Source of the DNA: an uncultured Bacteroidota bacterium
GTDB taxonomy: Bacteria > Bacteroidota > Ignavibacteria > Kryptoniales > JAKASW01
Length of the DNA stretch: 64,000 nt
Reading direction: 5' to 3'
NCBI GenBank assembly: GCA_963808245.1
Contig: CAWEES010000002.1
Location: 43,032-107,031 of the forward strand
This document shows, piece after piece, positions 5,328-63,245 of this stretch (positions are counted from its first letter, which is position 1; every line of letters starts with the position of its first letter). A program made the position numbers and the translations under genes. The notes beneath the pieces were generated by a model. That model ran no database searches. It was not told the DNA's origin and saw only the letters and a list, made by a program, of their open reading frames with translations.

Positions 5328-6476
5328 ATGATTGACTTCGATTTTACAGATGAACAGCTCCAAATTAAGGAAGCTGCCAGAGATTTTGCAGACACTGAAC
5401 TGGCAAAAGGAGCGGCAGAGAGAGACGAGAAGGAGCTTTTTCCTTACGAACAGGTGAAGAAGATGGCCGAGCTCGGTTTCATGGGAATGATGGTTCCAGT
5501 GGAACATGGTGGTGCCGGCCTTGACACCGTTAGTTATGTTTTAGCGCTCGAAGAGATCAGCCGGGCAGACGCTTCCGCCGGAGTAATCATGAGCGTCAAT
5601 AATTCCCTTGTCTGCTGGGGATTGGAAAAATTCGGGACTGACGACCAGAAGAAAAAATATCTCGAACCGCTCGCATCGGGGAAGATGCTCGGCGCATTCT
5701 GTCTTTCAGAGCCGGAAGCAGGGAGTGATGCCGTAAATCAACGAACTACTGCCGTACGAAATGGAAACAGTTACATTTTAAACGGGACGAAAAACTTCAT
5801 CACAAACGGAGCGAACGCTGATATATTGCTGGTGATGGCAACTACCGACAAAACAAAAGGTGCCCGCGGCGTCAGTTCTTTTATTGTCGAGAAGAGGTTC
5901 TCCGGGATTTTCGTTTCAAAGAAAGAGCATAAGCTGGGAATCAGAAGCTCCGATACCGCACAAATTACTTTGCAGGATTGCGGCGTCCCCGTCGAGAACC
6001 GGATCGGCGATGAGGGCTTTGGATTCAAGTTTGCGATGATGACGCTCGACGGAGGAAGAATCGGCATCGCTGCCCAGGCAATCGGAATTGCGAGAGCCGC
6101 ACTCGATGCGTCGCTCAAGTACGTCAAAGAGAGAAAGGCGTTCGACAAACCGCTGCACGAGTTTCAGGCGATCCAATTCAAGCTCGCTGATATGCACACG
6201 AACATCGAGGCGGCGCAGCTGTTGACCTTGAATGCGGCTCTTCGGAAAGACCACGGTGAAAGATACACGAAAGAAGCTGCCATGGCGAAACTAATGGCAT
6301 CAAAGGTCGCCGTTGACTCCGCATTAGAGGCGATTCAAATTCACGGCGGATATGGATATCTAAAAGATTTTCCTGTTGAACGTTATCTCCGTGACGCAAA
6401 GATAACTGAAATTTATGAGGGAACGTCGGAGATTCAACATCTGGTTATAGCGAGAGAATTGCTCGATTTGAAATAG
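5328..6476 (+). CDS. acyl-CoA dehydrogenase (short-chain/butyryl-CoA dehydrogenase-like)
   Basis: 382 aa. It has the ACAD signatures GAFCLSEPEAGSD and the catalytic-base region YEGTSEIQHLVIAREL. Confidence 0.9.
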   Translation: MIDFDFTDEQLQIKEAARDFADTELAKGAAERDEKELFPYEQVKKMAELGFMGMMVPVEHGGAGLDTVSYVLALEEISRADASAGVIMSVNNSLVCWGLEKFGTDDQKKKYLEPLASGKMLGAFCLSEPEAGSDAVNQRTTAVRNGNSYILNGTKNFITNGANADILLVMATTDKTKGARGVSSFIVEKRFSGIFVSKKEHKLGIRSSDTAQITLQDCGVPVENRIGDEGFGFKFAMMTLDGGRIGIAAQAIGIARAALDASLKYVKERKAFDKPLHEFQAIQFKLADMHTNIEAAQLLTLNAALRKDHGERYTKEAAMAKLMASKVAVDSALEAIQIHGGYGYLKDFPVERYLRDAKITEIYEGTSEIQHLVIARELLDLK

Positions 6477-21009: not shown

Positions 21010-21681
21010 TCACTTCTCCAGATAAGCCTTCAAGATATAAACGGGTTTTATCGGTACATCACGCTGGTCGCGTGGTTGAACGGAAATGGTGTCGACGACG
21101 TCCATTCCTTTGACAACTTCTCCGAACACTGTGTACTGTCCGTCCAGATGAGGTACGTTCTGTACGCAAATATAAAATTGGCTCCCGCTGGACCTGCGCT
21201 GTGGATTGACCTGATCTCCTTCGCGCGCCATTCCAACGGAGCCTCTCAGGTGCGGCTTCTCGATCTCCGCAGGGAGTGTGTATCCCGGTCCGCCCTCGCC
21301 GTAGCTCATCTTGTTAGGGGTTTTCGTGTTCGGATCTCCGGCTTGAATCACAAAACCTGGAATGATTCGATGGAATTGGAGGCTGTCGTAAAAACCCTGG
21401 ACGACAAGTTTCCGGAAGTTCTCGCTATGCACCGGTGCGGCGTCATCGTAAAGTTTAATTTCTATGTTTCCGTAGTTTGTTTCTAGTATCACGTTTTTTC
21501 CTTTCGTACTGCAGCCAATTAATAGGAATGTAAGAGCAGCGGCTGCCAAAAATGTTCTCTTCCATAAATCATGAAATGATTTAACCCTGGCGACACCGTA
21601 TGCAATACGGTGCCGCAATAACTTGATCCTGCCTTCAACCCTGAACGGGTTGAACTTATCACAATAAATATTTTTCGTCAT
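21010..21681 (-). CDS. peptidyl-prolyl cis-trans isomerase, cyclophilin type, lipoprotein (true start probably downstream of 21681, e.g. TTG at 21618)
   Basis: The cyclophilin signature FHRIIPGFVIQAGDP, GSQFYI and the lipobox LLIGC are present. The first ~29 codons of the ORF-track model overlap the tnpA 3' end and are read through two hairpin repeats. Confidence 0.85.
   Translation of the reverse strand: MTKNIYCDKFNPFRVEGRIKLLRHRIAYGVARVKSFHDLWKRTFLAAAALTFLLIGCSTKGKNVILETNYGNIEIKLYDDAAPVHSENFRKLVVQGFYDSLQFHRIIPGFVIQAGDPNTKTPNKMSYGEGGPGYTLPAEIEKPHLRGSVGMAREGDQVNPQRRSSGSQFYICVQNVPHLDGQYTVFGEVVKGMDVVDTISVQPRDQRDVPIKPVYILKAYLEK
21594..21654. repeat. double-hairpin (REP-like) module, copy 1
   Basis: CACCGTAT-GCA-ATACGGTG lies at 21594-21612 and TTCAACCC-TGAAC-GGGTTGAA at 21634-21654. 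Confidence 0.8.
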
Positions 21682-22105
21682 AGTCGATATGGTTCTCCTT
21701 CAAAAGTTCAATATATTCTTCGTGAAACGTCTTAACCTTGTGGTGCTCCTCTTGATTTCTTATATAGTTAATCAAAACGTCCTTCCGATCGAGCGAATAT
21801 GTAAACGCGCCGTAGCCGTCCTGCCATCCTTTAAAATCAGGGAATATATTTTTCTCTTTGATAAATTTAGTACTTGCGAGTTTTATATCCTTGATTAAAT
21901 CTGCAAGTGAAACGGAAGGATGGATATGAGTAAGTATGTGTAAATGATCCTCGACGCCATTGATCTGGTACAGGTGGCAGTTCTTGTTTTCCAATATTCC
22001 CGAAATATACATGAACAATTCTCCGCGGTGTTCCTGGACGAGTGTACGCTCGCGGTTCTTTGTGCCGAATATGAGTTGATATAATATTTGAGTATAAGGA
22101 CTCAT
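21659..22105 (-). CDS. IS200/IS605-family Y1 (HUH) transposase, REP-associated tyrosine transposase-like
   Basis: 148 aa. It has the HUH motif in EDHLHILTHI and the catalytic-Tyr helix YIRNQEEHH. Size and N-terminus (ILYQLIFGTKNRE) are typical of the Y1_Tnp family. Confidence 0.85.
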   Translation of the reverse strand: MSPYTQILYQLIFGTKNRERTLVQEHRGELFMYISGILENKNCHLYQINGVEDHLHILTHIHPSVSLADLIKDIKLASTKFIKEKNIFPDFKGWQDGYGAFTYSLDRKDVLINYIRNQEEHHKVKTFHEEYIELLKENHIDYDEKYLL

Positions 22106-22112
22106 TTCTTGT

Positions 22113-22131
22113 TCAACCCTTTCAGGGTTGA
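22113..22131. repeat. REP-like hairpin in inverted orientation (TCAACCCT-TTC-AGGGTTGA)
   Basis: Its reverse complement, TCAACCCTGAAAGGGTTGA, equals the hairpin at 22758-22776. It lies 8 nt upstream of the tnpA start. Confidence 0.75.
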
Positions 22132-22166
22132 GTCTCCTTTGTTACTTCTCAGCTTTATTCAAGTTG

Positions 22167-22181
22167 AACCCCTTCGGGGTT
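22167..22181. repeat. related hairpin AACCCC-TTC-GGGGTT
   Basis: The inverted repeat is visible in the sequence. The flanking TTG..GAG partly extends the similarity to the GTTGAACCC family. Confidence 0.6.
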
Positions 22182-22211
22182 GAGAGGTGCATCTTGCACG
22201 TTATTCATAGT

Positions 22212-22725
22212 GAATTCTTTTGGGCGCAGAAATGCTTTTTGCATTGTCGTATTTCGTGTTGCGACCATTTATGTTGGTCCACTTCAGATCTTCGTCCATC
22301 AAGGAATCCTGAAAGGATTCAATTTCTGTAACACCGTGCGAACCTCTTTTGGACCCGGAAATCCTTTTTGCATTGTCGTCTTTCGTGTTGCAACCATTTA
22401 TGTTGGACCACTACATATTTTAGTCCATCGGGGAATCGTGAAAGGCGTCAATTTCTGTAACACCGTGCGAACCTCTTTTGGACCCAGAAATGCCTCTTGG
22501 ACTGTTATCATTCGTGTTGCGACCATTTGTGTTGGGCCATCTCAGAGTTTCGTCCATCGGGGAACCCTGAGGGATTCAATTTCTGTAACACCGTGCGAAT
22601 CTCTTTTGAATCCAGAAATCACTCTTGCATTGTTATCCTTCGTGTTGCCATTATTCATGTTGGACCTCTTCAGATTTTTGTCCTTCAGGGAATCCTGAAA
22701 GGATTCAATTTCTTTAACACCGTAT
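22212..22725. repeat. tandem array of four diverged ~128/129-nt units
   Basis: Units start at 22212, 22340, 22469 and 22597. All share the core TTCGTGTTGC...ATGTTGG and the end AATTTCT(G/T)TAACACCGT. Units 1 and 4 contain a perfect GGAATCC-TGAAA-GGATTC stem-loop. Confidence 0.85.
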
Positions 22726-22777
22726 GCAATACGGTGTTAAAGAAGAGGAGACTACTTTCAACCCTGAAAGGGTTGAA
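22716..22777. repeat. double-hairpin (REP-like) module, copy 2
   Basis: AACACCGTAT-GCA-ATACGGTGTT lies at 22716-22738 and TTCAACCC-TGAAA-GGGTTGAA at 22757-22777. Confidence 0.8.
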
Positions 22778-22886
22778 CTGAGTACAGAAGTCGATGGTCT
22801 TCATATCAGATGTGACGCTACTGCGTAATTCCGATATGGAGTGTACAAATCAACCTGACGTTGTATCATATTCATACTACGAGCAG

Positions 22887-23675
22887 TCACCCGGTGAAGA
22901 ACATTAGTAACAGTAATCCAAGCACAATTCTGTATACTCCGAAGACTGTGAAGCGATGAGTTTGAATATACCGCAGCAGCCACTTTACCGCGATGAATGC
23001 TGTAATCGTGGACACGATGAATGCGATGCCGAGGTCGCTCCAGCTCTCTCCGCCGCCGTGCAGCTTATAGGCATCCCACAATAATTTTGCACTCGCCGCG
23101 TACATCGTCGGAATCCCGACAAGGAATGTAAATTCCGTCGCTGCCGCTCGATTGCTCGTGCCGAGAAGCATTGCCGCAAAGATCGTCACTCCCGACCGTG
23201 AAGAGCCGGGGAAAATGGCCGCGACCATCTGTCCCAAGCCCACCGCTATAGCCACTTTCCATGTTATGACGACCGTGTCCGGTTTTTTCGCCGCGAACCA
23301 TTCCGCGACGAAGATCCACAGCCCGCCGATTAAGAGAGCCCATGCAATCGGCGTTATCTCCTCCGGTAATTTGAAACCCATTTTTAAGGCAATGAAACCG
23401 AGGATGGCGGTAATAACAAATGCGGCGATAAGTTTCAGCGCGTAATCGCGATTCTCAGGTTTGGTGAATCCTGTCGCGAGCGACCACAGCCGCTTCCAAT
23501 AGATTATCGTAATCGCAATAATTGCTCCCGCCTGGATGACAACGTTGAATAAATCCGAACGATGTCCTAAACCGAGCTTTTCGGCAATGAGAAGATGTCC
23601 AGTGCTGGAGATGGGCAAAAATTCCGTGATGCCTTCGATAATTCCAAGTATTATGCTCGCGATGTAGTGGTTCAC
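22887..23675 (-). CDS. uppP: undecaprenyl-diphosphate phosphatase
   Basis: 262 aa, polytopic. The BacA signature is GIIEGITEFLPISSTGHL, and PGSSRSG is also present. Confidence 0.92.
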   Translation of the reverse strand: MNHYIASIILGIIEGITEFLPISSTGHLLIAEKLGLGHRSDLFNVVIQAGAIIAITIIYWKRLWSLATGFTKPENRDYALKLIAAFVITAILGFIALKMGFKLPEEITPIAWALLIGGLWIFVAEWFAAKKPDTVVITWKVAIAVGLGQMVAAIFPGSSRSGVTIFAAMLLGTSNRAAATEFTFLVGIPTMYAASAKLLWDAYKLHGGGESWSDLGIAFIVSTITAFIAVKWLLRYIQTHRFTVFGVYRIVLGLLLLMFFTG

Positions 23676-62615: not shown

Positions 62616-62702
62616 CGGAGAGGGAGGGATTCGAACCCTCGATACCCCGAAGGGCATTCCGGTTTTCGAGACCGGCCGATTCAACCACTCTCGCACCTCT
62701 CC
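62616..62702 (-). tRNA. tRNA-Ser (anticodon CGA)
   Basis: The minus-strand sequence is GGAGAGGTGCGAGAGTGGTTGAATCGGCCGGTCTCGAAAACCGGAATGCCCTTCGGGGTATCGAGGGTTCGAATCCCTCCCTCTCCG. It has a 7-bp acceptor stem, an anticodon loop CTCGAAA, a long variable arm and a T arm GAGGG-TTCGAAT-CCCTC. Confidence 0.9.
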
Positions 62703-63158: not shown

Positions 63159-63245
63159 CGGAGAGGGAGGGATTCGAACCCCCGGTACAGTTGCCTGCAC
63201 TCACGCTTTCCAGGCGTGCCAGTTCAGCCACTCCTGCACCTCTCC
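63159..63245 (-). tRNA. tRNA-Ser (anticodon GGA)
   Basis: The minus-strand sequence is GGAGAGGTGCAGGAGTGGCTGAACTGGCACGCCTGGAAAGCGTGAGTGCAGGCAACTGTACCGGGGGTTCGAATCCCTCCCTCTCCG. The anticodon loop is CTGGAAA, and it has a long variable arm and a TTCGAAT T loop. Confidence 0.9.

Follow-up and report, generated by a model that had tools for sequence, protein, structure and literature searches.

What is a block of about 129 nucleotides (nt) that stands four times in tandem beside a transposase gene, and does the transposase have anything to do with it? The question is raised by a 64,000-nt stretch of DNA from an uncultured Bacteroidota bacterium (contig CAWEES010000002.1 of assembly GCA_963808245.1; the whole stretch is called the window below). 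The array in question occupies positions 22212-22725, between the stop codon of uppP and the start codon of tnpA, a gene for an HUH/Y1 transposase. An earlier reading of the letters (the original prediction) had placed it inside a hairpin-bounded unit around that gene, a setting that the present analysis bears out. The array is probably a non-coding, lineage-specific and fairly old fourfold amplification of a 129-nt composite block, drawn from a cluster of hairpins that resemble repetitive extragenic palindromes (REPs) next to a fixed Y1 transposase gene.

Four units in tandem

Tandem Repeats Finder reports a single large tandem array in the window, at 22216-22723 (period 129, 3.9 copies, 82% matches, 0% indels, score 666), and nothing comparable elsewhere in the 64 kb. 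A repeat search recovers four in-register copies at spacings of 129, 129 and 128 nt. The array, to which no strand is assigned, is divided as follows:

22212-22725, tandem array of four head-to-tail units
22212-22339, unit 1
22340-22468, unit 2
22469-22596, unit 3
22597-22725, unit 4

The four head-to-tail units of 128/129 nt that had been predicted are thus recovered by Tandem Repeats Finder, by the repeat search, by alignment and in a second assembly (L143, see below). A MAFFT alignment leaves 84 of the 129 columns invariant and gives pairwise identities of 78-85%, in agreement with the 75-85% estimated earlier by eye. The common core ending in ATGTTGG that had been described is present in units 1, 2 and 4, but unit 3 reads GTGTTGG. 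All four units share the 3' end TCAATTTCT(G/T)TAACACCGT, which is, as predicted, the 5' (left) arm of a hairpin termed here hp2. After this arm, units 1-3 go on with GC and GAACC.., and they hold only the 5' arm of hp2 and the conserved linker AATTTCTGTAAC; unit 4 alone enters the full palindrome TTCTTTAACACCGTAT-GCA-ATACGGTGTTAAAGAA (22710-22744). A shorter stem-loop, hp3, has a faultless stem in units 1 and 4, and units 2 and 3 have a degenerate version, again as described before. The intact copies, taken from the list of perfect hairpins and the unit alignment, are:

22304-22320, plus strand, hp3 of unit 1 (GAATCC-TGAAA-GGATTC)
22690-22706, plus strand, hp3 of unit 4 (GAATCC-TGAAA-GGATTC)

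The array is not an assembly artefact, since L143, an independent assembly of the same strain from ENA (99.98% identity over 6012 nt), has the identical four-unit layout. The sole difference between the two is a 1-nt homopolymer indel (window ~22346-22350, position 2662 of L143), consisting of four against five T residues within the run CTCTTTTGG where unit 2 begins; either long-read sequencing misread the homopolymer, or the array contains a true slippage polymorphism. Three Logan short-read contigs of the same strain (L057-L059) stop within the array, and their ends fall where a 38-nt stretch is identical at the unit 1/unit 2 and unit 2/unit 3 junctions. As a practical point, arrays of this kind break short-read assemblies at the tnpA locus. 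No strain variation in unit number was seen in what is a minimal sample (one long assembly and three short-read contigs that end inside the array).

Hairpins around the transposase gene

The array fills the gap between an outer set of hairpins and inverted hairpins upstream of tnpA. The elements concerned are:

21565-21654, minus strand, inner three-hairpin module 3' of the tnpA stop codon (hp1 21634-21654, hp2 21594-21612, hp3 21565-21583)
22111-22131 and 22163-22185, plus strand, two REP-like hairpins (inverted repeats, 84-100% complementary)
22710-22744, plus strand, outer hp2, a 16-bp palindrome with its core CACCGTAT-GCA-ATACGGTG at 22718-22736 and its 5' arm forming the end of unit 4
22757-22777, plus strand, outer hp1, TTCAACCC-TGAAA-GGGTTGAA, from the collinear alignment with the inner module
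22779-22868, minus strand, diverged relic of the tnpA 3' end adjoining the outer module (46/90 nt identity, fixed register)

Outer hp1, hp2 and hp3 (22777-22690) repeat the three-hairpin module in direct orientation, and the outer and inner hp2 have an identical 20-mer (21593-21612 in the inner copy). The two REP-like hairpins upstream of tnpA are each preceded by a TTATTCA-type linker and are inverted with respect to the hp1 downstream of the gene. Accordingly oriented, the palindromes at 21635-21655 and 22111-22131 flank tnpA as an inverted pair, 95% complementary.

Because the 90 nt adjoining the outer module match the end of tnpA, this module is read as the tail of an old, mostly lost second copy of the gene. 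In the register fixed by hp1, the 46 identities compare with a mean of 22 and a maximum of 33 in 329 other registers; the corresponding relic in the related genome L041 (~5689-5778) scores 48/90. By local alignment alone the relic is not significant against shuffles (99/500). The locus would seem, then, to have held two tandem copies of tnpA plus module in the past. In the dead copy the hairpins are nearly unchanged and the coding relic has decayed to ~50% identity. The inner hp3 reads AATCA-TGAAA-TGATT and the outer one (22690-22706) AATCC-TGAAA-GGATT, a compensated double change within one genome. A younger example of a duplication of the tnpA tail plus module is seen in a relative with 60% identity (L135, 211-823), where a 306-nt segment upstream of tnpA is duplicated in tandem (x2) and includes the last tnpA codons (..ENDIEFDEKYLL*) and hp1.

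The same locus in sister genomes

The gene order uppP-tnpA-PPIase-holA (PPIase, peptidyl-prolyl isomerase) was found by tblastn in the related genomes L041, L060 and L061, and among the called genes of L143 and L144. uppP and PPIase are ~90% identical in three genomes compared, and tnpA is identical to the window gene at 90% in L060, 89% in L061, 86% in L041 and 83% in L144.

L061/L062 have no array. A single copy is present, and the L061 segment is collinear with one window unit over its full length, in the order REP-like hairpin, spacer, intact hairpin TTGAACCCC-TC-GGGGTT, hp3, linker and hp2. The two REP hairpins are better preserved in L061 than in the window, where two of the three hairpins of each unit are decayed. 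L144 also has a single copy and no array, in a layout that, unaligned and by eye, is like that of L061. L041 has ~5 hairpins about 50 nt apart and no tandem array. At the same spot, L060 carries a different array, 5.4 copies of 45 nt at 93% identity, with a unit of one hairpin plus linker; this array is much younger than that of the window. Between it and the outer module, L060 has an extra segment of ~250 nt (~2440-2700) with different GC-rich palindromes (e.g. CCGCTCGCGG and CCCGCTTCGCGGG), as if another small element had been inserted in the hairpin cluster.

The units of the window are closer to one another than to the L061 segment, with which they are 69-75% identical, and third codon positions have diverged by 32-47% between the window and L061. 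These two observations place the amplification after the split of the lineages, and long ago. The array is thus old, as had been proposed, and the amplification took place in the window's lineage only. Among the four, unit 4, the neighbour of the complete hairpin, stands nearest to the orthologues.

Arrays and hairpins across the family

A metagenome scan supplied 80 further loci with tnpA relatives 59-81% identical; none of these 80 had a detectable uppP, PPIase or holA beside tnpA. Arrays of period at least 20 within 800 nt of tnpA were counted over 76 non-redundant loci, and at least one was found in 24. The total of 29 arrays near tnpA compares with 2.8 expected from the outer flanks of these loci, a ratio that is inflated because the outer flanks are mostly coding. 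Periods range from ~22 to 306 nt. The consensus unit contains a perfect hairpin of at least 6 bp in 17 of 31 arrays, and most have a TTATTCA-type linker as well. The original prediction had named, as the outcome that would speak against it, a lineage-specific duplication with no association to relatives carrying the same tnpA. The 129-nt array is indeed lineage-specific, as the single copies of L061/L062 and L144 and its absence from L041 indicate, but tandem hairpin arrays as such do accompany the tnpA family. The tendency to form arrays probably resides in the hairpin cluster; distinct ones have arisen independently beside this gene family in many lineages.

The hairpins themselves are widely shared. 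In many loci hp1-like copies are placed at about -25 to -37 nt and at about +6 to +16 nt relative to tnpA, and hp2 at +44 to +54 nt in many loci across the family. In an alignment of the module from 36 relatives, 93.4% of the cells are paired and 14 of the 22 pairs have changed on both sides. Double-change cells number 83, against 19 in shuffles (none of 500 shuffles reaches the observed value) and at most 17 in slid controls. Given this strong covariation, the hairpins are selected structures. The strand on which they fold was addressed through the ratio of G.T to A.C mismatches by polarity: over all hairpins it is 17:3 versus 7:17 (Fisher p=2.7e-4), and on the curated module alignment 21:11 (p=0.11). 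This is suggestive, and no more, of folding on the plus strand of the window, on which TGAATAA comes before hp2.

Some individual loci deserve mention. L095/L098 (2641-2987 and 3594-3782) have hairpin arrays on both sides of tnpA, with 11 copies of 29 nt upstream and 5.7 copies of 33 nt downstream. Some relatives (L133/L134) reach ~14 regularly spaced hp1-like hairpins. In a few family loci hp1-like hairpins are also found at a distance of 2-3 kb, a hint that certain genomes have dispersed copies.

Origin of the array

On the plus strand, the unit is composed of two decayed REP-like hairpins of one polarity, hp3, the family-conserved linker and the 5' arm of hp2, all parts of a cluster that separates tnpA from the outer copy of its three-hairpin module. 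Most likely the first duplication came from slipped-strand mispairing, or from illegitimate recombination with hairpin arms as partners; its breakpoints lie at a REP foot and close to the hp2 apex. Four copies may then have been reached through unequal homologous recombination, and the units would have drifted afterwards. The internal hairpins of the array have lost pairing, and the array itself is probably without a function of its own. The block of linker plus hp2 5' arm is kept in every unit and between genomes, and this block is a likely recognition determinant for the transposase.

Several observations sit uneasily with this account. The breakpoints are blurred by ~20% divergence, and the 2-nt GC at each junction can be assigned to neither side. 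The array also contains a block of 19 nt without any variation and the stretch of 38 nt that two junctions have in common; these could reflect selection or gene conversion instead of drift, and the half-sites could then have a function. At the family level, the control for array enrichment sets mostly intergenic DNA near tnpA against mostly coding DNA further out, and the count probably includes a few coding repeats that belong to adjacent genes.

One alternative is that the Y1 transposase itself made the array, by repeated cleavage of single-stranded DNA (ssDNA) and strand transfer at hairpin-associated sites, or by an alternative resolution of circular intermediates. We regard this as rather unlikely, even though arrays recur independently beside the tnpA family with very different periods and the gene is intact and under purifying selection (see below). 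Excision and recombination mediated by REP-associated tyrosine transposases (RAYTs) have been proposed as the source of REP arrays (PMC3733652). On its left the array begins at the 5' foot of a REP-like hairpin, now decayed, as seen in the alignment to L061, and GT precedes both breakpoints (..ATAGT/G.. and ..ACCGT/.., the slash marking the break). The original prediction had put the unit boundary at the foot of hp2 and had read it as a Y1 cleavage site. In fact the boundary lies inside the stem, 2 nt below the loop of the CACCGTAT hairpin and close to its apex, and the foot at the left end belongs to the other, decayed hairpin. Y1 enzymes cut outside the hairpin, at a site that a guide adjoining the hairpin foot determines (IS608, ISDra2, E. 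coli TnpA-REP). Beyond the GT, neither a common cleavage motif (no 4-nt motif is shared) nor microhomology was found at the two breakpoints, where divergence blurs the junction. The argument from Y1 cleavage is weak because the boundary is near the apex and the breakpoints are without a clear common motif. Moreover, it leaves the junctional GC unexplained, and slippage in hairpin-rich DNA needs no enzyme. The earlier phrase "reiterated element end" nonetheless comes close to the truth, since each unit has parts of the module of tnpA (hp3, linker and hp2 5' arm) that are also found 3' of its stop codon; it is the proposed repetition of Y1 cleavage and rejoining that is weakly argued.

The array might instead be a functional cis-element, in which half-sites (linker plus hp2 5' arm) bind or titrate the transposase, or modulate read-through from uppP into tnpA or the expression of tnpA. 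The stretch TCAATTTCT(G/T)TAACACCGT is the most conserved of the four units and is also kept in L041, L060, L061 and L144, and the lone 3' arm is able to pair with any one of the three additional 5' arms (14 nt, 93% complementary). Because the genes of the locus (uppP/BacA, tnpA, the cyclophilin PPIase and holA) all lie on one strand, the minus strand, transcription would include the array as the 3'-untranslated region of uppP or the 5'-untranslated region of tnpA. However, for four copies the block is conserved within the array to a degree that barely exceeds chance, decay has affected the REP hairpin pair of every unit and the hp3 of units 2 and 3, and the closest relatives with the same locus manage without an array. 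A function of this type is improbable.

It is far less probable still that the array is the remnant of a protein-coding repeat, with 43 codons to the 129-nt unit, or a live open reading frame (ORF; 22180-22698, plus strand, 172 amino acids (aa)). One plus-strand frame is free of stops across three units, and one minus-strand frame gives a hydrophilic repeat (HGVTEIESFQDSL..). Yet the count of variable columns by codon phase is 15/19/11, with no codon-position bias; the 1-nt indels between 128- and 129-nt units disrupt the reading frame on either strand; and unit 2 interrupts the best minus-strand frame with stop codons. Neither the two long ORFs nor the repaired minus-frame repeat has a Pfam match above threshold, and in L061 the orthologous single copy clearly consists of intergenic hairpins. 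A coding array was rejected on these grounds (six-frame translation, codon-phase test, Pfam), in keeping with the original prediction.

Equally hard to sustain is an array of small structured RNAs, one in each unit, which the original prediction had listed among its explanations and for which the regular unit size and the short stem-loop of units 1 and 4 would speak. Folded singly on both strands, the units give minimum free energies with z-scores of -1.35 to +1.82 against shuffles, and no stable or common fold emerges among them, the predicted structures differing from unit to unit. The hp3 changes in units 2 and 3 break pairs without compensation, and the unit is single-copy in L061 and L144. 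The array has no Rfam match at gathering score or even at E<=10. Over the whole window Rfam 15 returns two tRNAs only (see below), and in 21400-23000 only chance microRNA matches with E>1. A scan for promoters and terminators gave weak terminator-like matches only, on the plus strand and at hairpins already identified, with no T-runs after hp2. Finally, CRISPR arrays have repeats of 24-48 nt with unique spacers of similar size, and this option was rejected, as it had been before, on a whole 129-nt period repeated at ~80% identity without unique spacers.

A fixed transposase gene

The genes that surround the array are listed first:

21010-21681, minus strand, cyclophilin-type PPIase (lipoprotein), downstream of tnpA (Pfam Pro_isomerase, E 1.9e-48)
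21659-22105, minus strand, tnpA, 148-aa HUH/Y1 transposase (Pfam Y1_Tnp, E 5.6e-23; NCBIfam IS200, 61.3 bits, cut-off 55)
22887-23675, minus strand, uppP/BacA, upstream neighbour of tnpA (Pfam BacA, E 1.2e-67)

The 148-aa protein carries the motifs EDHLHIL (DHLH), GWQDG (GWQ) and NYIRNQEEHH (Y---Q--HH). By comparison of motifs only, with Table 1 and the text of PMC6006769, it is assigned to the type of TnpA-Y1 subclass 1.2. Its sequence matches in PDB are to IS200-type TnpA only, the best being the ISDra2 and IS608 enzymes with E ~1e-3; E. coli TnpA-REP is absent from these matches.

The window contains one tnpA copy (a single tblastn match). Differences by codon position are 0.05/0.06/0.32, which argues for purifying selection. 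The gene is found at the same chromosomal site in five related genomes (tnpA 83-90% identical) and thus does not behave as a mobile insertion sequence (IS). It is a fixed and vertically inherited gene, and would be that of a domesticated Y1 transposase.

The hairpins appear local rather than genome-wide, to the extent of the 64-kb window and one relative's chromosome. No further copy of hp1, hp2 or hp3 with up to 3 mismatches occurs in the window, and an 18-mer has one exact match in the 3.6-Mb chromosome OY969800.1 of that relative. A contig scan with TCAATTTCTNTAACACCGT returned 56 loci, nearly all of them single chance matches in unrelated taxa; L041 was the only true relative among them, with one match.

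Comparison with known systems

Contrary to the original prediction, which knew of no described equivalent beside a RAYT or IS200 gene, tandem clusters of REPs, REPINs or bacterial interspersed mosaic elements (BIMEs) next to RAYT genes have been published (PMC3116915, PMC2817692, PMC3733652). In Pseudomonas fluorescens SBW25, ordered tandem REPIN clusters, flanks included, lie beside each of the three RAYTs (PMC3116915). In E. coli, BIME-2 flanks the yafM gene, and BIMEs accompany one third of rayt genes (PMC2817692). REP clusters consist of units reiterated in tandem along with flanking DNA (PMC3733652). Besides E. coli yafM, examples from this literature are pflu3939, yafM and pflu2165 of SBW25 (PMC2817692, PMC3116915, PMC3733652).

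The present locus resembles the REP-RAYT system (Nunvar 2010; Bertels & Rainey 2011) in several respects. tnpA is bracketed by inverted copies of a short hairpin. It is a single copy in the window, under purifying selection and at the same position in L041, L060, L061, L143 and L144. The hairpins are clustered beside the gene, units are reiterated in tandem, and the share of loci with arrays (24/76) is similar to the one third of PMC2817692. The differences are as clear. Palindromes of the REP-RAYT system are dispersed in tens to hundreds of copies, whereas those described here appear local (64-kb window and OY969800.1). The protein is of class 1 (IS200-like, Y---Q--HH) and not a class 2 TnpA-REP, in which the Y motif ends in NP and extra domains are present. 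There is no GTAG/CGTC head, the conserved flank being TGAATAA/TTATTCA-like, and the units are old (~80% identical) instead of near-identical. In its workings the locus is like a REP/BIME cluster, but two of the traits that define classical REP-RAYT are not seen in it. The likeness to a BIME extends to the unit, which comprises two REPs of one polarity, hp3 and half of an hp2 of the other polarity, four times over.

As described by Quentin et al. 2018, TnpA-Y1 subclass 1.2 proteins occur in low copy number, do not resemble ISs and as a rule have no secondary structures at their flanks (PMC6006769); no later paper on the subclass was found in the library searched. The window protein agrees in its 148 aa, its DH[IV]H-type HUH motif (DHLH), its WQ and its Y---Q--HH (YIRNQEEHH), as well as in low copy number, lack of IS behaviour and the Bacteroidetes/Cyanobacteria range. 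Unlike in the published description, the gene and 36 relatives have a covarying three-hairpin module, an upstream inverted hairpin and frequent arrays. What appears to be new, therefore, is the association of tandem hairpin arrays with subclass 1.2; such arrays beside RAYT genes had already been published.

With the IS200/IS605 family (IS608, ISDra2) the locus has in common an HUH/Y1 enzyme scoring above the NCBIfam IS200 cut-off and two direct copies of hp2 that bracket the gene region; these ISs have subterminal hairpins, recognised on one strand. It differs in that tnpA, present once in the window, keeps a constant site in five related genomes and does not behave as a mobile element, in that tnpB is lacking here, and in that the outer hairpin copy belongs to the relic of a second tnpA, not to an IS end. 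Bacterial intergenic minisatellites, products of slippage or unequal recombination, offer a further parallel: head-to-tail units of ~100 nt, an intergenic position, a lineage-specific copy number and the breaking of short-read assemblies inside the array (L057-L059). Unlike them, the unit is built from hairpin repeats cognate to the neighbouring transposase family.

Taken alone, the array is a decaying local amplification of little consequence, and its value is that of a pointer. It led to the covarying three-hairpin module and to a roughly tenfold enrichment of arrays around a subclass that is listed without hairpins. We tentatively propose that subclass 1.2 enzymes may be domesticated ssDNA enzymes with a cognate hairpin system of their own (the covarying three-hairpin module with its TGAATAA-type head), confined to the neighbourhood of the gene and repeatedly generating local arrays. 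Such a "local REP nursery" would be distinct from classical REP-RAYT, and the 129-nt array would be one of its fossil products. If this held genome-wide, REP/RAYT-like biology would extend to the IS200-like class in Bacteroidota-type genomes, and a natural series of young and old arrays would be available for asking how REP clusters and BIMEs arise.

Other features of the locus

The longest ORF of the PPIase passes through the inner hairpin module. Its frame is open through the entire three-hairpin module, overlapping the tnpA stop codon, in all five genomes. The signal peptide of this lipoprotein (..KRTFLAAAALTFLLIGC) has no canonical start codon in the window where relatives have one (21540-21681, minus strand); the start position reads TGG in the window, TTA in L061 and TTG in L041 and L144, and L060 has ATG one codon later.

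Downstream of holA, L060 carries an unrelated tandem array of 21/42 nt (5583-5819; ATGTAACATGCCTCAG.. units, up to 9.9 copies), which is not found at the corresponding place in the window.

The two tRNA genes of the window are of the long-variable-arm type and 87 nt each:

62616-62702, minus strand, tRNA gene
63159-63245, minus strand, tRNA gene

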